Source: an uncultured virus (IMG/VR IMGVR_UViG_2061766007_000892)
Taxonomy: Duplodnaviria > Heunggongvirae > Uroviricota > Caudoviricetes
DNA length: 64,000 nucleotides
Reading direction: 5' to 3' (one strand)
Virus record (IMG/VR): IMGVR_UViG_2061766007_000892
In this document: positions 12,404 through 50,573 of the stretch, in pieces
How positions within the stretch are numbered: position 1 is the stretch's first letter
Layout: every line of letters begins with the position of its first letter
The notes under the pieces: model-generated
What the model was told of the DNA's origin: nothing
Database searches by the model: none
What the model saw: the letters and a program-made list of their open reading frames with translations, nothing else
Translations under genes and position numbers: made by a program

Positions 12404-13122
12404 AGTTCCTTCCTTAAATATCCTTTCACAGTATTTTTCATACAGGTTGCCAAGTCATCGTTCCAAGCCGCGATTAGATTAAGTTCAAACTCAGAATGCA
12501 TAAGACGATGATAATTACGACAATAATCCGCAAAACGCTTCATATCTTCAAAAGTTGCAAAGATTGCTTCTTTTGTAGGGAGTTCCTTATCTTCATTGAA
12601 ACGCAATTCACGAGCATCAGAAAATACCTGTTTCTCTTCCCAAGTCGTATTGTCCATAGCAAAGTCATGCTCTGCTACGAAATGACAAAGATTAATAAGA
12701 TATAGTGCGCGCGAAGCGGATTTGCGATTAACCCCATAGCGTTCAAGTGAGTTCTTAATCATCCCCTCAACCGTAACAATAAACTTATCCCAAACGGAAA
12801 AAATATATCCTTCTCTGTATGCCTTCCGTACCTTATTGAGATAGAAATCAAAATAAGGGTCTTTTACTTCGCTATGCTGTGAAAAGAGAAGTTCAATAGC
12901 ATTGATATTGCCATTACGAACATTCTTATCAAAAGTAAGAATACTCATAACATTATAATGCTCGGGGTCATATCCATCAGGTAAATCATTTTTATCAACC
13001 TTATGGTAACTATAAAAGTCATTGAAATCAGGCATCATAAGGAGTTTATAGTCAAAATCAGAATCAGGACCATCCAATCTGTAATTCTGGGAACCATAAC
13101 AAATTGTTGCGACTTCTTTCAT
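12400..13122 (-). CDS. DNA pol beta-superfamily nucleotidyltransferase
   Basis: YGSQNYRLDGPDSDFD fits the GS..DxD motif. Confidence 0.8.
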   Translation of the reverse strand: MKEVATICYGSQNYRLDGPDSDFDYKLLMMPDFNDFYSYHKVDKNDLPDGYDPEHYNVMSILTFDKNVRNGNINAIELLFSQHSEVKDPYFDFYLNKVRKAYREGYIFSVWDKFIVTVEGMIKNSLERYGVNRKSASRALYLINLCHFVAEHDFAMDNTTWEEKQVFSDARELRFNEDKELPTKEAIFATFEDMKRFADYCRNYHRLMHSEFELNLIAAWNDDLATCMKNTVKGYLRKEL

Positions 13123-13544
13123 TTTGTAATCCTTTCTGCGGCGTATCCGCAATCAGTAGTATAATGAATATTTTTAATGCCAATTTCTTTTATTGCGGCG
13201 CGGCAAGCAGGGCAAGGTCTGGCCATTCCCAATTTACCATCTCTAAGTTCACGATAAACATAAAGATGAACTTTAGAAAAATCAATATCAAGATATTTAA
13301 TCTTGCGCAAAGCAGATAACTCCGCATGAAGTTTTTCAGGCAAATATTTTGAACTATCATCCTTATAACGCCATTTATTATATTTGGCTTGGTCAGTATG
13401 CGTGCGGTCGGTGTTAAAGCCTTTTGCGAGCACAGTGCCTTTATAGGATATTACCGCACCAATACGGGCTCGTCCGCAACCGCTATAATCTGATTTGAAA
13501 CTACATTCTCGTGCCAACCTAAACAAATGACTATCACTTTTCAA
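13119..13544 (-). CDS. cytidine/dCMP deaminase-like Zn protein
   Basis: HAELSAL and ARPCPAC motifs. Confidence 0.85.
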   Translation of the reverse strand: MKSDSHLFRLARECSFKSDYSGCGRARIGAVISYKGTVLAKGFNTDRTHTDQAKYNKWRYKDDSSKYLPEKLHAELSALRKIKYLDIDFSKVHLYVYRELRDGKLGMARPCPACRAAIKEIGIKNIHYTTDCGYAAERITK

Positions 13545-16539: not shown

Positions 16540-17421
16540 TTAATGACTCCTTTCATCCGCATCGTGTAAAATAAGAACTTTCTTCCATAGTTCTTCGCCC
16601 AAACGCTTTTTCCACGTAGGTGCAGACTGTGAATCATAGGGACACATATGATAGTTAACTAATTGAATAGATTCTATTGACGCGCCCATATTCATAGCTA
16701 AGAATGCCCCATAGTTTTGGTGAGAATAGTAGTGTGCTACTCCCTTATCGTCATAGGAACGAGTATAAGCCTTACCAATATCATGAAGGAGAGCTGCAAT
16801 GCCGACTCTTACCCATTCCCCATCAGACAAATGCGGAGCATTGAAATTTTTTATGCAAGCGCTCAAATGATCGTACAAAGTGAGAGAATGATGCGGATTA
16901 TCCTGTGAGCCGGCCGCGCGCACATCACGCCATACATTTATCGTAAATTCTTTTACATCATATTCTGCGGGAGTAACAATTTCAATTACATCCCAACCTT
17001 CATTATAGACCGGCATCTGGAATTGCTTAATCTGCCGTTCAAAAAGCCAATCGGGCACCTGGCGCTCGCGCTTCTTATTCCACTCCTTACAAATGGAAAG
17101 AGGGGTGTTAAATACAACAACACGGCACTTAACATCAGGAAAATGACGCTTAATCTGATTGAGAGTATGAATACGATACCTCATACTAAGATTGGTAGCA
17201 CAATAAAAAACATTAATATTATGAGAAAGAGCAGACTTGGTGCGCGCGAACATTTCACTAAACACCTTATCGGGATTCTGCTGGTCATTAGCATCTTCCC
17301 ATAACTCTCTTCTTATTTCATCAGAATCCGCTACTATATCAGTAGCAATATTATGCTGGTTATAACACCAGCGGCTCTTACCGCTGCCACTGATACCTAC
17401 TGTCATAATAAACTCACACAT
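16540..17421 (-). CDS. polynucleotide kinase (P-loop) - HD phosphoesterase fusion
   Basis: GISGSGKS Walker A, DSDEIR, NKKRERQVP; HH..LYDH, LLHDIGK, HDAD. Confidence 0.85.
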   Translation of the reverse strand: MCEFIMTVGISGSGKSRWCYNQHNIATDIVADSDEIRRELWEDANDQQNPDKVFSEMFARTKSALSHNINVFYCATNLSMRYRIHTLNQIKRHFPDVKCRVVVFNTPLSICKEWNKKRERQVPDWLFERQIKQFQMPVYNEGWDVIEIVTPAEYDVKEFTINVWRDVRAAGSQDNPHHSLTLYDHLSACIKNFNAPHLSDGEWVRVGIAALLHDIGKAYTRSYDDKGVAHYYSHQNYGAFLAMNMGASIESIQLVNYHMCPYDSQSAPTWKKRLGEELWKKVLILHDADERSH

Positions 17422-20088: not shown

Positions 20089-20277
20089 TCACCATAGCAT
20101 TTGGTCAAGATAGTCGGGTTCAAGATTAAGGTAAGATGCTATAATATCTTCACATTCCTGATAACTTCCGCGGGCGGCCGCATCCCAGAGTTCTTCTCTA
20201 CATTCTTCTACTAGGTTTTCTGCTTCAAGCCGCGAAATATGGTCTCGCCGCATAAGGATTTCTACGATTTCATTCAT
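20089..20277 (-). CDS. conserved small phage protein
   Basis: ILMRRDHIS...LNLEPDYL. Confidence 0.65.
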   Translation of the reverse strand: MNEIVEILMRRDHISRLEAENLVEECREELWDAAARGSYQECEDIIASYLNLEPDYLDQMLW

Positions 20278-21412
20278 CTTCTTCTGCTCCAATCTTAGTC
20301 GTTCCCATTTCTGCCATAAGATAAGAAGCCAAGGTGCGCGCACGCATATTCATCAAATAGTCGCTACCATCCTTTACCTTTTCATCTAGCCGCGCATACA
20401 AGTAAGAACGCACGATAGGCATGTAGGTGTTAGCATACATAGCGAAATCACGACGTTCTCCCATTGCCCCTACAACGCTACTAATTACCTTAAAGGCAGT
20501 CTCACATACTTCAATGTAATAGCGAATACGCTGAACTACATCATCAGTAAAGTCTTTAAACTCGGGATAGTAAGCAACGAAATCATCAAGAGTTCCCTGC
20601 TGATACATTTCTACTACGCGCAGAACAGTCAGCGGGCCATTACCGCGCATCTTATGTAATGCTATATACCAAGGGGTCTTAATTTTTACACGATGCCATT
20701 CCGCGTCCTTTACAACAAATCCTTCAAAATCTTCTTCAAATTCATTCGCGGCGGTAATACAATCTGAAAGAGAATAAAGATTATAAGTTTTAGGGTGCTT
20801 GATGTTTCCATATTCTAGGGCTTCATTATCCTCTTCAAGAGTAATCATATTGCGACGACCAAGATAATAAATACCTGCTTCATCATAACGCACACAAATA
20901 AGATTATAAGAAGATACCATTTCAAAGAAATAGCAATAATCCTTATCCAATTGATTTAATAGATTTTCATATTCTCGCTGGCCGCCAATGATGGAAATAA
21001 AAATTTCTTCAAAGTTGGTATTTGCTACATCTACATTACGAGCATATATAGTCCCATTACTAGATAATAGCCAATTATTATCAAACTTATCGTAAGCCAA
21101 ACGCATTAGACTACCATCTACCTTTTCACTGATGGTAGCAGTTTCCCAATTTAAATCATGAAGAGCAGAATACTGCTCTGCCGCGTTGAAAAACTTATAC
21201 ATGGCAATAGAAATAGGAACAAACTTATCATTTACGCGGCGGAAAATAGCACCACGCGCTTCTTGGCATAGCCGCAGACCCATATCAGAAATAAATTGCT
21301 GATATTTAAAAAGCACATAAGGGCCATCATGGGAAATTTTAAGTGAATACGGCATTTGAGAAAGTTCCTGCTCCCAATTTTCGTGAGAGTTAATATAATT
21401 TAAAAGTTCCAT
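20270..21412 (-). CDS. T4 Rnl1-like RNA ligase
   Basis: EARGAIF, KFFN, EKVDGS (motif I), FEMV, EGFVV, VKIK; has its own promoter. Confidence 0.9.
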   Translation of the reverse strand: MELLNYINSHENWEQELSQMPYSLKISHDGPYVLFKYQQFISDMGLRLCQEARGAIFRRVNDKFVPISIAMYKFFNAAEQYSALHDLNWETATISEKVDGSLMRLAYDKFDNNWLLSSNGTIYARNVDVANTNFEEIFISIIGGQREYENLLNQLDKDYCYFFEMVSSYNLICVRYDEAGIYYLGRRNMITLEEDNEALEYGNIKHPKTYNLYSLSDCITAANEFEEDFEGFVVKDAEWHRVKIKTPWYIALHKMRGNGPLTVLRVVEMYQQGTLDDFVAYYPEFKDFTDDVVQRIRYYIEVCETAFKVISSVVGAMGERRDFAMYANTYMPIVRSYLYARLDEKVKDGSDYLMNMRARTLASYLMAEMGTTKIGAEEDE

Positions 21413-28816: not shown

Positions 28817-29083
28817 TTAATGTTCTACTCGTTTAATGCGCCAAAACCAATTCCAAGGTTCTTGACTCAAAGAAGGTTTAATAGTGCGCCAATAATAACC
28901 AACTTTCATTCCTTTGAATACCAAGTGGCCATTTTCGCGAACGTGAGAATGGTAGACAATAAAGCCAATATGCCTGTTGTCTTGTTCTACCAGTCGATAC
29001 AAATCTTCTCGGACATCTTCGGGGAGATCTTCGGGACGATACCAACCCAGTTTGTGCGTTTTGCAATACTCTTTGAAAGTCAT
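28817..29083 (-). CDS. hypothetical protein
   Basis: Own promoter and RBS. Confidence 0.75.
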   Translation of the reverse strand: MTFKEYCKTHKLGWYRPEDLPEDVREDLYRLVEQDNRHIGFIVYHSHVRENGHLVFKGMKVGYYWRTIKPSLSQEPWNWFWRIKRVEH

Positions 29084-29217: not shown

Positions 29218-29607
29218 TTACCGCAGGGTGTAGGTGTTAGCCTTCCCCTTGGCTTCGGTCTTTACAATCTCGTCCGCCAGTTCGTGGAGCAGAATATACT
29301 GCACCTTGGCGCTAGTGAAATCTTTGGGAAGCGCATCGGCGCAACGCTCAAAGATTTCCTTGGCGGTGCCGCCTTCAGTCAGAGCATCACGCAGGATGGG
29401 GAGAACCTGCGCCATCAGCACAGCGCGCTCATTAGCACGCTTAGCCTTAGCCCTCGCCTTAGTGTCCTCGCTGACCTTGCGCGGCTTCGCGATCTGGTCG
29501 CGAATCTTCGTGAGGACTTCCACCACTTCGGTGGGGTTCTCAATGTCCATGGGGATGGAGTTGATAGCAATGTTCAGAGCGTCAACGCGGGTGATGGTGT
29601 TCTTCAT
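29218..29607 (-). CDS. winged-helix-like family protein 1
   Basis: TAKEIFERCADALPKDFTSAKVQYILLHELADEIVK...NTY. Confidence 0.8.
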   Translation of the reverse strand: MKNTITRVDALNIAINSIPMDIENPTEVVEVLTKIRDQIAKPRKVSEDTKARAKAKRANERAVLMAQVLPILRDALTEGGTAKEIFERCADALPKDFTSAKVQYILLHELADEIVKTEAKGKANTYTLR

Positions 29608-29708
29608 AATGTTTCCCTTTCTGGTTTTTAGGACTTTTCCTTGTCCTCTTGATGTATTTATTATATCAGATTCCCAACCGTTTGTCAAGTTAAGATTCTG
29701 TTATAATC

Positions 29709-29769
29709 TGGTGGAGCGAGGGGGAGTCGAACCCCTCTCACCGATCAGCAGGTGCTCTGCTCTCGCCCC
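29709..29769 (-). ncRNA. 61-nt tRNA-like RNA (acceptor stem with G3.U70-equivalent pair, T-arm, ACCA end, no D-arm)
   Basis: GGGGCGA...GGGGTTCGACTCCCCC TCGCTCC A CCA; own TTGACA-17-TATAAT promoter at 29809-29781. Confidence 0.7.
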
Positions 29770-29825
29770 TTGATGTATTCATTATATCACGTTTGTGATG
29801 TAATGTCAAGTTAAGAGTTTGTTAA

Positions 29826-29910
29826 GTCGGTTTTAGGTGGCCGATCAACTGTTGCATGTTTCTAATTACCACAACGCGCTTGCGCCTGCGCGCTCCCGTT
29901 TCCCTCACCA
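29826..29910 (-). ncRNA. candidate small RNA
   Basis: Promoter 29947-29919; GC-rich; no ORF with an RBS before the next promoter. Confidence 0.5.
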
Positions 29911-30076
29911 ACAAATATAGTATAGCAGAAATCGCGGTGAAAGTCAATACTTTGGCGTGTAAAGATTATGTTAAATCGCGGGCCGGGTGATTACTTAACA
30001 AATATTTTACATTACCCGGCCCGAGTTAGTCCTGGCTAACTCGCTCATAAAAAGAAAAGGGCTTGCGCCCTTTTCC

Positions 30077-30473
30077 TTATTCCGCAAGGCGATAGGTGTT
30101 CGCCTTATTCTTGGTCTCGGTCTTGACGACCTCGTCCTTCATCTCACGCAGAAGGACAGCCTGAACCTTCGCGGCGGTGAAGTCCTGCGGCAGACGCTCC
30201 TGCGNNNNNNNNNNNNNNNNNNNNNNNNGTCATGTCAGCGGTCATGACATTGCGCAGAATCGGCACAACCTGCGCGCACATCTCGGCACGCTTCGCGGCG
30301 TTCTGCTCCTTGCGCTTCGCAGAAGCCTTCGCCTTGGAATCCTCGCTACGCTGGGAGCGCTTCGCAAGGGTCTCGCGCAGAGCAGTCAGACGCTCCGCAA
30401 CATCGGGCATGGTGTCCTTCATGGTGTCAATGGCGGTGGACAGAGCAACGGCGTAAGTCATGGTGTTCTTCAT
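30077..30473 (-). CDS. winged-helix-like family protein 2 (frame offset across N-run)
   Basis: 3' frame reads QERLPQDFTAAKVQAVLLREMKDEVVKTETKNKANTYRLAE*. Confidence 0.8.
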
Positions 30474-30569
30474 TTTGATTCCCTTTCTGGTTTGTGAGGT
30501 TTTCCTTCCTCTGTTGTGTATTCATTATAGCACGTTTTGTGCCTAATGTCAAGTTAAGAGTTTGTTAAG

Positions 30570-30705
30570 AGTTATTCCTTTTCGTTTCTCTTAACTACGC
30601 CTGCGGCTGTGCGCTTAGTGGGAACAGGCGGTCGTAAGTTGTGGGGAGTGCTTCGCGGGCGCCACGCGGTTGAGGGGCTATCCCCTGTTCCTGTCCTCTC
30701 AACAT
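30570..30705 (-). ncRNA. candidate structured small RNA (or leaderless 36-aa ORF)
   Basis: Promoter 30738-30710; GGAACAGG/CCTGTTCC long-range pairing. Confidence 0.5.
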
Positions 30706-30754
30706 CTTTATTATACCAGAGATTTTGTCGTTTGTCAAGTTAAGATTTTGTTAC

Positions 30755-30818
30755 GATTGGGAGGGATTCCGCCGCCACGGGACGCGCACGACGCGGTTTC
30801 CCTTTCCCCTCTCGACAT
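30755..30818 (-). ncRNA. candidate small RNA
   Basis: Promoter 30852-30824; GAGGG/CCCTC closing stem; no credible ORF. Confidence 0.5.
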
Positions 30819-30934
30819 ATATAATTATAGCGGAAGTTCTGCTCAAAGTCAAGTAATTATGAGACTATTTAACACAATCTTAACAAAGCGGGCCGGGCGA
30901 GTTTTTAACATAAAATTAAAGTAGCGGCGAACCG

Positions 30935-31609: not shown

Positions 31610-32029
31610 TTACACCGTTACTTCCCTATCAAGATACTGGTTATCATCGTCTTTATCAATCGGCTGGGACACAAGAGCCTTAAAGCCTACCGTGTTAAGG
31701 TCTTTCACAACCTTGCGCGCGGTACGCTTGCGCTCCTTTTCCTTTTCGGCGCGCTCTGCCTTTTCCTTGCGCTTCGCCGCCTTATCTGCGCGGTCGGCAA
31801 GCGTCAACTTCCAATCATCGGCGGCGGCGTAACNNNNNNNNNNNNNNNNNNNNNNNNNNNNNNNNNNNNNNNNNNNNNNNNCAAACTTTTCGTTGCCTTC
31901 GCTGTCTACGACAGGCAGAGCCAGTTCGCTTGCGCTGATAGGGAGAATGTCGCTGATGGGGTTCACGGCGTCAATGATGGTCTTGAGAACACGGTTGCGG
32001 ATTTCAGTTTCAAGAGAAGCCTTACTCAT
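31610..32029 (-). CDS. K/A/E-rich-tail family protein 2
   Basis: Leader hairpin; AAADDWK...ADKAAKRKEKAERAEK. Confidence 0.8.
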   Translation of the reverse strand: MSKASLETEIRNRVLKTIIDAVNPISDILPISASELALPVVDSEGNEKFXXXXXXXXXXXXXXXXXYAAADDWKLTLADRADKAAKRKEKAERAEKEKERKRTARKVVKDLNTVGFKALVSQPIDKDDDNQYLDREVTV

Positions 32030-35077: not shown

Positions 35078-35413
35078 TTACTTCACCATGTAGGTGAAGG
35101 CGGACTTGCCGTTGTCAATCTTGACAACTTCATCGCGCCAGTAGTTCAGCAGAGCGTACTGAATCTTGTGCGCGGTGAAGCCATCGGGCAGGTCGTTCTC
35201 GCACTTGGCGAAAATCTCCTTGACCGTCATCGGCGCGGTCATCACGCCGAACACGATGGGCTTCGCGGCATCGTAGGCGTTAGCCTTTTCCGCGGACTTG
35301 GCAACCGTGCGCTCATACTCGGCGCGAATGTCCTCAACCACAGCGGACAGGTCAACGGTGTCGTCAGAGTTCACGAAGTAGTTGTACAGAGCGGTCAGAG
35401 TGTTCTTCTTCAT
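35078..35413 (-). CDS. winged-helix-like family protein 3
   Basis: TVKEIFAKCENDLPDGFTAHKIQYALLNYWRDEVVK...FTY. Confidence 0.8.
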   Translation of the reverse strand: MKKNTLTALYNYFVNSDDTVDLSAVVEDIRAEYERTVAKSAEKANAYDAAKPIVFGVMTAPMTVKEIFAKCENDLPDGFTAHKIQYALLNYWRDEVVKIDNGKSAFTYMVK

Positions 35414-35504
35414 AGTGTAGTGTCCTTTCTGGTTTGGTGGGTTTTCCTTCCCTTTGATGTATTTATTATAGCACCAATCGGCTATAATGTCAAGTTAAGA
35501 GTTT

Positions 35505-35568
35505 GTTAAAGGATTCTTCCTCAATCTACTGGGTTCTTTCAACCAGATTCGGCAAGAACCCTTTAACA
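35505..35568 (-). ncRNA. candidate small RNA with alternative folds
   Basis: Promoter 35602-35574; GGGTTCTT pairs with either AAGAACCC or AAGAATCC. Confidence 0.5.
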
Positions 35569-35616
35569 TCTTCATTATATCACGATTTCCCAACTTTGTC
35601 AAGTTAAGATTTCGTG

Positions 35617-35690
35617 AAGCTCAGGGCTCGCAAGCTCGGTGGCCATCTCCGAAGCATCAAAGGTTTTTAGCCCCTGTTTCCTTTCGACAT
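35617..35690 (-). ncRNA. candidate small RNA
   Basis: Promoter 35723-35695; CAGGG(G)CT/AGCCCTG closing stem; no start codon properly spaced from the RBS-like tract. Confidence 0.5.
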
Positions 35691-35872
35691 ATATAGTATA
35701 GCAGAAATTGAAATGAAAGTCAAACACTTAATGGGAAAGTTAACCAAATCTTAACATTGCGGGCCGGCCCGCGAATGTTAAGTTTTTGTAAAGTGCTTGA
35801 CTCTTGGCGGAATCTCTGCTATAATATTTACAGAAGCCAAGGAAAAGGCTCAAAAACCAGAAAGGGAATAAT

Positions 35873-36190
35873 ATGAACGCTAACGAAATCAAGTCCACCG
35901 CTCGTCAGATGACCATCTCTGCTATCATGCCCTCCCTGATGGACAACGATGCCGTCAAGTTCGCTGATGGCTCCTTCGCCATCCTCCAGACTGTTGACGG
36001 TCAGGAAGTTTGGACGGAAGTTACCGTCAAGTCCAAGGCGTGGAAGGACACCAAGGTGTCCAAGGCTTTTGACCCCTTCGTGGCTGCGGAGGAGTGGGAA
36101 GCCGAGAAGCGCATCAAGGCTGATGCCAAGGCTGCCAAGGATGCCGAAAAGGCTGCCAAGGTAGCCAAGGCTAAGAAGGAAGAGGCGTAA
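35873..36190 (+). CDS. K/A/E-rich-tail family protein 3 (inverted unit)
   Basis: Own promoter, leader hairpin and terminator. Confidence 0.85.
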   Translation: MNANEIKSTARQMTISAIMPSLMDNDAVKFADGSFAILQTVDGQEVWTEVTVKSKAWKDTKVSKAFDPFVAAEEWEAEKRIKADAKAAKDAEKAAKVAKAKKEEA

Positions 36191-36518: not shown

Positions 36519-36842
36519 TTAAACCCCTTCCTTCTCCTTGCGCTTGGCTTCCTTTTCGGCGGCCTTGCGCGCCTTCTCCGCGGCCTTCTCCGCGCGCTCT
36601 GCCAGTTCGGCATTGAACGCGGCAACCTTGGCGTCTACGTCAAACGCTTCGGTCTTTGCCGTGTTATACCAGTTGGGACAGGAAATCTCAACCTTGGCGA
36701 ACAGCGGATGTCCGTTGTCCTCTGCGGTGCCCATCGGGATGGCGTAGGTGAAATCGTCAATCTGGATGGCATTACCGAAAAACTCGGTGAACTGCTCGGC
36801 GACGGCGGTCTTAACGTTGGTGCGAATTTCCATCTTAGTCAT
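36519..36842 (-). CDS. K/A/E-rich-tail family protein 4
   Basis: Leader hairpin; AFDVDAKVAAFNAELAERAEKAAEK. Confidence 0.85.
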   Translation of the reverse strand: MTKMEIRTNVKTAVAEQFTEFFGNAIQIDDFTYAIPMGTAEDNGHPLFAKVEISCPNWYNTAKTEAFDVDAKVAAFNAELAERAEKAAEKARKAAEKEAKRKEKEGV

Positions 36843-39482: not shown

Positions 39483-39674
39483 TGAGAGGGGCGTTTCTTC
39501 CCCTCTCGGTGGCTCCATCCTTCTAGCCTAGCGCTTCCAGAGCCCGCGCGTATGTTGCCTGCACATTTATATACCGCAAAGGAGGGCTTCGGCTTGCGGT
39601 GGTTTCATCGGTTAGGACTTACGGACGCTCTTGGGTCTCACCCGTTGTGGGCTTTGCCTTCCCTCAACCTCTGT
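39483..39674 (-). ncRNA. candidate ~190-nt multi-stem RNA
   Basis: Promoter 39707-39679; stems ACCGCAA/TTGCGGT, GGCTC/GAGCC, GAGAGGGG/CCCCTCTC. Confidence 0.55.
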
Positions 39675-39759
39675 ATATATTATAATCCAAGAGTTGCGAT
39701 TTGTCAAGTTAAGAGTTTGTTAACAAGCGGGCCGGCCAGCGGAGAGCATGTGCTCTCCA

Positions 39760-48428: not shown

Positions 48429-49471
<1,043 letters not shown>

Positions 49472-50573
49472 AACAACTGCTCGCGAAAAAACTGTATTTA
49501 TGTATAGCAAACTTATTGAGTGCGCGGTAAATGCTGTTTTGCGGCCAAATGAATATTTTGTTTGGGGTCTTTCATACGAAGTGCCTTTACATTATGGCTT
49601 AATTGATAAAGCCACACTAATGGACCAGCGCTACTCCAACACCATGAATGAAGACTCATTTGCGCGTGAATCTTTATCAATTTGGACTGGTAATAGTAAA
49701 GAGGCGTGGCTTGATTCTAAACGATTAAGCAAGCGCAGAACTTTATTAAAATGTGAGCGTAAAGCACAAGAAAATCCTACAAATCCAAACACATTTTATA
49801 TGATTGGGGTAGATGTAGCAAGATATTCTGCCAACACTGCGATTATGGTGGCGAAAATATTACCAAATTCGCACGGTTTTAAAAAGAATATCGTCTATAC
49901 AGAAGTTATTCATGGTGCCAACTATATTACTGAACAGGCACCGCGTTTGAAGAAACTAATACAATTATATAATCCACGAGAGATAGTCATTGACGGTAAT
50001 GGCCCAGGTATCGGATTACTTGATGCTATGGTTCTTCCATCATTTAATAAAGATACTGGAGAAAAATTTCCAGCCTACTTTACTTTTAATGATGAAAATC
50101 ATTTACCGCCCGATAAGAAAAAAGAAATGGATGAGCCTATGCCAGAATTAAATGCCATAATATATGATATTAAAGCTGGCTCATCAAATGATGACCTTAT
50201 CCATTCTAATTTTTTCGCGCAAATAAATAATGGTTCTGTATCTTTTCTTGCCAGTGAAAGAATTGTAAAGGATAAGTTATTAAAAACGATTCGCGGCAAA
50301 AAGATGTCATTATATGACCGCAGAGTTTATTTGCTACCTTATGAAATGACTTCTCGTCTTATGGATGAATTGAATAATTTGAAGTTAAAGCCTACTGGCG
50401 TTCAAAACCAATTTAAGGTAGAACGCATTTCAGCTTCCACCCCAAAAGACCGTTTTTCTGCTCTTGAATATTGCCTTTACAGGGTTAAATATTATGAAGA
50501 TAAAGAGGCACGAAAAGCAAAGAAAAGAAATTTTGGGCAATATGCCTTTTTCAGTCCTAGACATAGGGGGTGA
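49472..50573 (+). CDS. terminase large subunit, exon 2 (nuclease domain)
   Basis: IGVDVAR, IDGNGPG, KDRFSA. Confidence 0.85.

Follow-up and report, generated by a model that had tools for sequence, protein, structure and literature searches.

Phage tRNAs counter tRNA-cutting defences. Phage RNAs that consist of nothing but the acceptor half of a tRNA are almost undescribed, and our literature searches gave one published phage case, the Mycobacterium phage DS6A. According to excerpts of PMC4131195 and PMC11915505, DS6A encodes a message-less tmRNA for which a decoy role was proposed, and a TLD-only RNA inhibits tmRNA. Another group of comparable molecules is formed by tRNAs with an 8/4 division of the acceptor branch. 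The partial text of Mukai et al. (PMC5389517) reports such tRNAs from phages and from bovine rumen Clostridia; those with G3:U70 were chosen for an in vivo test with alanyl-tRNA synthetase (AlaRS), and 8/4 or 9/3 tRNAs inserted alanine in E. coli.

Here we describe a locus in a 64,000-nt stretch of DNA (the window), which is part of a large phage. The original prediction placed in it a 61-nt mini-tRNA with alanine identity elements. The quoted letters are present as the reverse complement of positions 29709-29769, hence the gene lies on the minus strand (Table 1). It is a real and conserved early gene, and what its RNA retains of an alanine tRNA is just the half that accepts the amino acid. 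Among the tRNA-like RNAs found at one swappable, promoter-flanked early slot, which form a family, it is the shortest allele. In the following we refer to it as the 61-mer.

Table 1. The 61-mer with its parts and neighbourhood in the window, and its full-size relatives on MAG contigs
Feature	Position	Strand	Basis
61-nt tRNA-like RNA, whole	29709..29769	-	sequence, fold, tmRNA-model alignment, frame scan, conservation
Acceptor stem 5' strand GGGGCGAG, RNA 1-8, G3 in wobble pair	29762..29769	-	fold and alignment
Hairpin AGCAG-AGCAC-CTGCT, RNA 9-23, 5-bp stem, 5-nt loop	29747..29761	-	fold
Unpaired linker GATCGGTGAGA, RNA 24-34, 11 nt	29736..29746	-	fold
T-arm, 4-bp stem GGGG/CCCC and T-loop TTCGACT, RNA 35-49	29721..29735	-	fold, motif
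Acceptor stem 3' strand CTCGCTCC, RNA 50-57, T at RNA 55 = U70 equivalent	29713..29720	-	fold and alignment
Discriminator A and encoded CCA, RNA 58-61	29709..29712	-	sequence
11 nt from -10 hexamer to G1	29770..29780	-	sequence; putative transcription start
Promoter P1, TTGACA-17-nt spacer-TGnTATAAT	29781..29809	-	12/12 consensus positions, TG before -10
Promoter P2, starts 20 nt past CCA, drives 129-aa gene (29607-29218)	29660..29688	-	promoter scan
First terminator-like hairpin downstream of P1	29194..29217	-	terminator scan
Upstream cassette, promoter P0 (29947-29919) and ORF-free structured RNA of ~95 nt running into P1	29815..29947	-	scan, conservation
8/4 cloverleaf-like gene	L101:451-525	-	
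8/4 cloverleaf-like gene	L102:451-527	-	
8/4 cloverleaf-like gene	L103:404-477	+	
8/4 cloverleaf-like gene	L105:403-477	+	

In the minimum-energy fold, the acceptor branch of the 61-mer is built of 8 bp and 4 bp with G.U as the third pair, and the 5-bp hairpin directly abuts the acceptor stem. A 7-bp acceptor stem with a 5-bp T-stem had been proposed, and this division has to be corrected: the fifth T-stem pair would be an A.C mismatch, whereas the 8+4 reading pairs all positions, including G8-C. The same applies throughout types A to D of the alleles described below, where G-C forms pair 8 and a 49:65 pair would be mismatched. The other predicted elements are confirmed: the G3.U70 pair, A as discriminator, the encoded CCA, the T-loop TTCGACT and the hairpin AGCAG/CTGCT. 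As far as sequence can tell, the alanine identity set of G3.U70, A73, G2-C71 and 3´ CCA is complete. As for the decoding half, the fold contains neither the 7-nt anticodon loop of a canonical tRNA nor a decoding anticodon arm as in 8/4 tRNAs. Its place is taken by one 5-bp hairpin with a 5-nt loop, alignable with either the D-arm or the anticodon arm of the full-size relatives, so that the original 'no D-arm' may or may not hold; the 7-nt anticodon loop is the part that is certainly missing. The GG that normally docks on the T-loop is absent from the hairpin loop, which counts against reading the 61-mer as a tRNA mimic.

By folding energy alone the 61-mer does not stand out: z is -1.38, and 23 of 200 shuffles reach as good a fold, which is not significant by itself. 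The case for the 61-mer rests on motif and conservation. The T-arm/ACCA motif was seen once in the window against 0.04 expected, with a match in 4 of 100 shuffles, and a scan of the window for the whole tRNA-like frame gave one hit. The expected lack of a canonical call was borne out in the 64-kb window, which has masked stretches: ARAGORN reported 0 genes, and Rfam at gathering score gave no tRNA call and no call for the 61-mer, its only hit being a group I intron elsewhere.

The (8/4) allo-tRNAs share with the 61-mer the 12-bp branch split into 8 and 4, and some of them also G3:U70. Unlike the 61-mer with its one hairpin, they are full cloverleaves with anticodons and often with long variable arms, as far as the excerpt of PMC5389517 goes. 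The synthetic minihelix-Ala is alike in that the acceptor/T-arm stack, G3.U70, A73 and CCA are its whole alanine identity. By contrast, the 61-mer is a natural gene, in which a further hairpin and 11 nt of linker separate the 5´ strand of the acceptor stem from the T-arm.

A specific link with tmRNA was also part of the original prediction. The Rfam tmRNA model (RF00023) is indeed the best-scoring family for the 61-mer and aligns with it end to end, at 21.5 bits (E 1e-6 for 601 nt searched). This is below the gathering score of 47, below the 43.2 bits of DS6A and even below an ordinary phage tRNA-Lys with 26.6 bits. The score thus reflects general tRNA likeness, and membership in tmRNA is not supported. 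In the model alignment, the D-loop analogue (GGnUUCGAC), helix 2a and the GGAC segment, which form the SmpB contact region, are deleted from the 61-mer; the same positions are present in DS6A and in the viral contig L021.

These comparisons bear on the possibility that the 61-mer is a true TLD-only tmRNA homologue as in DS6A, which would bind SmpB and block or short-cut the tagging by host trans-translation. Such a homologue would be expected to have the same identity set and to have its body inserted at the same place as in tmRNA, and both apply here. There is a published precedent in DS6A together with an inhibition experiment (PMC4131195 and PMC11915505, in excerpt), and clear TLD-only forms exist in other viral contigs (63.4 bits in L021, 43 bits in L005). 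We nevertheless hold this to be quite unlikely. Apart from the low score and the deleted segments, which leave no SmpB-binding signature visible, the geometry is 8/4 and not 7/5. The MAG that carries a copy of the 61-mer has a true tmRNA with different ends. Moreover, an SmpB gene was found in none of three related genomes (0 of 3, G001-G003).

The likeness to DS6A concerns a phage-encoded, small RNA with no anticodon and no tag frame, located outside a tRNA cluster and having G3.U70, discriminator A and a T-arm (excerpts of PMC4131195 and PMC11915505). On the other side, DS6A keeps the D-loop analogue and helix 2, both absent from the 61-mer, while the 61-mer has 8/4 geometry and its own consensus early promoter, and is one allele of a swappable-core series.

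Clearer message-less tmRNA domains than the 61-mer were encountered during the search. One of them, L021:914-976 (-), is 63 nt long, has its own promoter and exceeds the tmRNA gathering score. Another, at 43 bits, is L005:1501-1562 (-), with L007, L018 and L022 alongside. We also considered the core of the 61-mer (RNA 9-34) as an antisense to tmRNA and rejected it, the longest complementary run being 5 nt (in the MAG tmRNA), less than the shuffled mean of 6.0. Antisense to other window transcripts was rejected as well, with a longest run of 9 nt, which is chance level.

To follow the slot through related DNA, loci were collected by the promoter sequence just downstream of the 61-mer. This gave 30 loci in addition to the window, some of which are the same contig present in two collections. 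Five types of slot alleles were distinguished among these 31 loci. Type A, the 61-mer itself, has 61 nt (8 entries including the window); type B has 119 nt (13 entries and 3 truncated ends), type C 158 nt (3 entries), type D 109-110 nt (2 entries) and type E 73 nt (2 entries). L104, on a MAG contig, adds a ninth copy of type A, which stands behind a different class of promoter. The nine copies (the window, L051, L053, L059, L060, L063, L073, L077 and L104) thus come from viral, metagenome and MAG contigs. Eight of them are identical, and L060 has two changes, both at unpaired positions (A>G at position 14 in the hairpin loop and G>A at position 33 in the linker). When 8 type A copies are aligned, the spacer of P1 varies at 8 of 17 positions and the RNA at 2 of 61. 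The cassettes upstream and downstream differ among the copies. The P2 promoter region is about as conserved as the 61-mer among the aligned copies, so that part of the identity may stem from recent recombination that spread the entire module.

Fourteen of 15 distinct full-length slot sequences, belonging to types A to D, keep G1-C, G2-C, G3.U, A73 and the 8+4 geometry. Thirteen of these 14 end with CCA and one, of type B, with CTA. At the same time, acceptor pairs 4, 5 and 7 and two pairs of the T-stem have changed on both sides. The G3.U wobble was kept while neighbouring pairs were rebuilt, which we take as a sign of selection on alanine identity; judged by sequence comparison, the identity set looks to be under selection. 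Type E is the exception, having a bulged stem and no G3.U70. The predicted tRNA-shaped RNA gene with neither decoding nor message part stands. Structure is conserved in the bodies of the longer alleles, too: in an RNAalifold analysis of 9 type B and D sequences, 10 of 40 pairs show compensatory change, including hairpin 1 and a GNRA-capped hairpin. Rfam assigned the longer alleles to no family at E up to 5, apart from tmRNA hits of 12-14 bits. A tag reading frame in them was considered and dropped, as no consistent frame with a stop was visible by eye.

The exact 3´ 27-mer of the 61-mer occurs 5 times in the genome collection. One of them lies in the type A copy on a MAG contig of Acutalibacteraceae, a lead to the host that is weak because it depends on binning. 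The remaining four are within 74-77-nt genes in three MAGs of ~1 Mb (Table 1), which have G3.U70, an acceptor stem and T-arm identical to those of the 61-mer, and their own D-arm and anticodon-like arm. The anticodon-like loops of these genes differ (by eye U-NNN-CA). Rfam returns only weak tmRNA hits of 17-23 bits for the four genes and ARAGORN calls one of them; each of the three MAGs has a separate true tmRNA. Among viral contigs, a search for full-size relatives with the same 3´ 27-mer yielded only two known type A contigs. Given the longer RNAs at the slot and the full-size MAG genes with identical acceptor stem and T-arm, the 61-mer is probably a shortened but conserved derivative of an 8/4 alanine-type tRNA-like gene, as judged from sequence. 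Just upstream of all four MAG genes there is a GGTGG, which could pair with their CCACC end.

The same relatives might be taken to mean that the 61-mer is a deletion remnant, left over without function from a longer tRNA-like RNA or an 8/4 tRNA-like gene and kept within a recombining promoter module. The longer alleles have CGGTRAG right after hairpin 1, and CGGTGAG in the linker of the 61-mer resembles their CGGTAAG; the acceptor stem and T-arm recur in full-size genes on four MAG contigs, and the flanking P2 is equally conserved. A mere remnant is improbable, though, in view of nine copies in at least six contexts with 2 changes in a single copy, both unpaired, next to a spacer so much more variable. 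In G002, which is complete with terminal repeats, the 61-mer is the only allele, and its consensus promoter has been kept. According to the original prediction, full-length tRNAs as homologues would mark the 61-mer as a decayed copy. What holds of this is the existence of longer RNAs at the same slot and of cloverleaf-like genes in MAGs; the slot RNAs of 73-158 nt are not canonical tRNAs, however, and the mini form is conserved. Decay of the phage's own tRNA-Ala was rejected because the two sequences are not alike.

The RNA was also predicted to be self-promoted. A consensus promoter does precede it, with G1 at 11 nt after the -10 hexamer, from which we predict a 5´ leader of ~4-5 nt to be removed by RNase P. 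On the other hand, 44 near-consensus promoters were seen in the window against 1.12 expected, so an own promoter is the rule for every cassette and not special to the 61-mer. From 1.7 to 40 kb, the minus strand of the window carries tiny genes, each behind a strong promoter. Such a setting of strong early promoters and tiny genes, in which the 61-mer lies, resembles a host-takeover region. The cassette of P0 upstream of the 61-mer is conserved in L053, L059, L063, L073 and L077. No terminator-like site was seen between 29947 and 29217, including the intervals between P0, P1, P2 and the gene end. Transcripts from all three promoters are thus expected to be nested and to include the 61-mer, those from P1 running through P2 and the 129-aa gene before reaching the terminator-like hairpin at 29217-29194. 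It follows that the 61-mer must be cut out of a longer RNA, or it could equally be a leader element.

The spacer of P1 (29785-29803, -) holds a 5-bp inverted repeat, found at the same place in L051, L053, L059 and L060. The repeat varies by compensating or G.U-compatible changes (ATCAC/GTGAT, AGCAC/GTGCT, AGTGC/GTGCT). Its role would be that of an operator or, within read-through RNA, of a hairpin.

Sequencing runs give a weak hint of transcription. In one RNA-seq library, the region 29685-29904 is covered by a single contig of 222 nt, which extends without a break from the upstream RNA across P1 and the 61-mer; the 61 nt are unchanged and all differences fall in the promoter region. This contig is a weak sign of transcription and says nothing on ends. 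Three more runs labelled as metatranscriptomic, which are probably DNA, also cover the 61-mer. In five runs, 7-10% of sampled words were present; four runs were mapped as contigs only, a form that carries no starts, ends, strand or level. No conclusion can be drawn from gaps in contig cover, such as 28833-29064 in all four runs or the coding region in X5.

Given such a layout, the main alternative is that the 61-mer acts in cis, as a signal for processing or stability. Attracted by the tRNA shape, RNase P together with a 3´ nuclease would cut read-through transcripts there, so that the upstream ORF-free RNA would acquire its 3´ end and the downstream mRNA its 5´ end; or else the fold would shield transcripts from P1 at their 5´ end. 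The freed 61-mer would then be a by-product. The absence of a terminator between P0, P1, P2 and the gene end agrees with this, as does the contig unbroken across the upstream RNA, P1 and the 61-mer. Plant mitochondrial t-elements offer an established precedent (excerpt of PMC1920247): they are tRNA-like folds within longer transcripts, with no terminator of their own and with possible cuts by RNase P or RNase Z. We consider such a role of the 61-mer unlikely for several reasons. Firstly, RNase P does not need G3.U70, yet the wobble is kept in 14 of 15 sequences through compensatory change elsewhere in the stem. Secondly, for a pure cutting signal a consensus promoter 11 nt upstream would be superfluous, and so would the 50-100 nt of conserved covarying structure in the longer alleles. 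Thirdly, the same 61-mer stands not only before the 129-aa gene but, in L059, also before an unrelated one. The difference from t-elements is similar in nature: these need no aminoacylation identity and no own promoter, according to the excerpt, while the slot of the 61-mer conserves G3.U70, A73 and CCA together with a promoter.

The array as a whole resembles PeSL cassettes of T4-type phages, where strong sigma-70-type early promoters flank variable cassettes and recombination shuffles the content (PMC2839356, in excerpt). Repeated strong early promoters around variable cassettes are found here as well, and a terminator per cassette is not. A PeSL, as described in that excerpt, is a promoter with a terminator stem-loop and the cassettes hold protein genes, whereas here there are no terminators in between and ORF-free RNAs are included too. 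Further cassettes of a promoter with an ORF-free, GC-rich structured RNA of ~70-150 nt were seen at 29815-29947, 30739-30852, 30553-30738, 35603-35723, 35494-35602 and ~39560-39707 (all on the minus strand). Each of these runs straight into the next promoter, and related phages have other RNAs there.

The explanation that we tentatively favour, with slightly less than even confidence, is that the 61-mer comes from an independent early gene and is a small, stable and abundant, RNase P-matured, probably alanine-chargeable, non-decoding tRNA mimic that acts as a decoy. Host RNA polymerase would start at P1. RNase P, which reads the 12-bp acceptor/T stack, the T-loop and RCCA, should then cut the leader of ~4-5 nt at G1, and the 3´ side would be cut and trimmed to the encoded CCA. 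Charging by host AlaRS is to be expected, as G3.U70 with A73 suffices even in minihelices; in 1989 Francklyn and Schimmel reportedly observed alanine charging of minihelices carrying this wobble pair. EF-Tu binds charged acceptor branches. Without an anticodon loop the 61-mer cannot decode, which is why we read it as trans-acting. It might serve as a decoy or competitor for a host factor that recognizes the acceptor branch or the CCA end of (alanyl-)tRNA or tmRNA. Candidates for such a target are a defence toxin directed at the acceptor end and the trans-translation machinery.

A role in T-box regulation or the stringent response had been suggested as well. Both need codon or specifier pairing with an anticodon, so that such a role is unlikely.

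Another use of a charged RNA would be as an alanine donor outside translation. The 61-mer would feed a transferase acting on a cell-wall cross-bridge, a lipid or a protein N-end, and would spare the decoding tRNAs. Non-proteinogenic tRNAs serve Fem-type transferases in Gram-positive bacteria, and the conserved alanine identity set standing without a decoding part is the only point in favour. We regard this as very improbable, because FemAB-family genes were found in 0 of 3 genomes (G001-G003) and Pfam scans of 99 window ORFs yielded no transferase candidate.

The decoy explanation can be extended to the slot as a whole, and here we are far more doubtful. The slot may encode a new class of early RNA effectors that have an alanine-chargeable 8/4 frame and swapped central domains (from none to ~100 nt). 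Produced in large amounts as infection begins, they would neutralize host factors at tRNA acceptor ends or stalled ribosomes, the 61-mer being the bare frame. Such effectors would amount to RNA-only counter-defence by tRNA mimicry, an idea we rate as rather unlikely.

To the published DS6A case, the present locus adds an allelic series showing selection on the G3.U70 wobble, with swappable cores. It further adds an unusual 8/4 frame exactly common to cloverleaf-like genes in small-genome MAGs, and a place in a shuffled early-promoter array resembling PeSLs. Should the 61-mer be charged and trans-acting, it would offer a simple testable system for the use that phages make of aminoacylation identity outside translation. 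As nothing more than a cutting signal, it would represent tRNA punctuation of phage early transcripts.

As for the phage itself, its portal protein is ~30% identical to those of Enterococcus EF1-like phages and Phass-1 and matches PHROG 2739. A near-match DNA search of the phage collection with the window gave nothing, and a distant one yielded no relative either, only 9 short matches, of which six fall on annotated tRNA genes. Two complete relatives were available, G001 with 181 kb and G002 with 169 kb and terminal repeats. Each has one distant cluster of canonical tRNAs (18 in G001 and 14 in G002) and exactly one tRNA-like element of the present kind, ~50-60 kb away from that cluster. With a single element so far from the tRNA clusters, and with no likeness to the phage tRNA-Ala, the 61-mer is not a stray tRNA. 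A search for a CCA-adding enzyme in G001-G003 was negative (0 of 3). One of the tRNAs of G002 has the amber-reading anticodon CUA (L080:19294-19370). Both genomes also contain a gene of 134-135 nt (G002:80085-80218 and G001:149587-149721) that resembles a tRNA but is extended near the anticodon by a long insert; the insert could be an intron or a decoy.

The 129-aa gene downstream of the 61-mer was examined as a possible partner and belongs to no Pfam or PHROG family, only unnamed viral look-alikes being found. It falls into a family of small early genes (105-139 aa) at 29218-29607, 30144-30473, 35081-35413, 36522-36842 and 31610-32029 (-) and at 35873-36190 (+). They have in common the motif AACCAGAAAGG ahead of the start codon and a 5´ leader that contains a short hairpin. 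This family, too, has no Pfam or PHROG match and gave only unnamed viral look-alikes and weak HTH leads. Other early genes encode a dCMP/cytidine deaminase (13119-13544, -) and a small protein with carbohydrate-binding module 5/12 (1794-2129, -).

Elsewhere in the window there are a T4 Rnl1-like RNA ligase (20270-21412, -) and a P-loop kinase (AAA_33) fused to an HD domain (16540-17421, -). As a pair, they resemble a heal-and-seal system for the repair of tRNAs attacked by anticodon nucleases. Finally, the group I intron mentioned above (49211-49422, +; 96.8 bits) overlaps the 3´ end of a GIY-YIG endonuclease ORF (48493-49317) and precedes an ORF at 49440-50573, so that it probably splits a packaging or structural gene.
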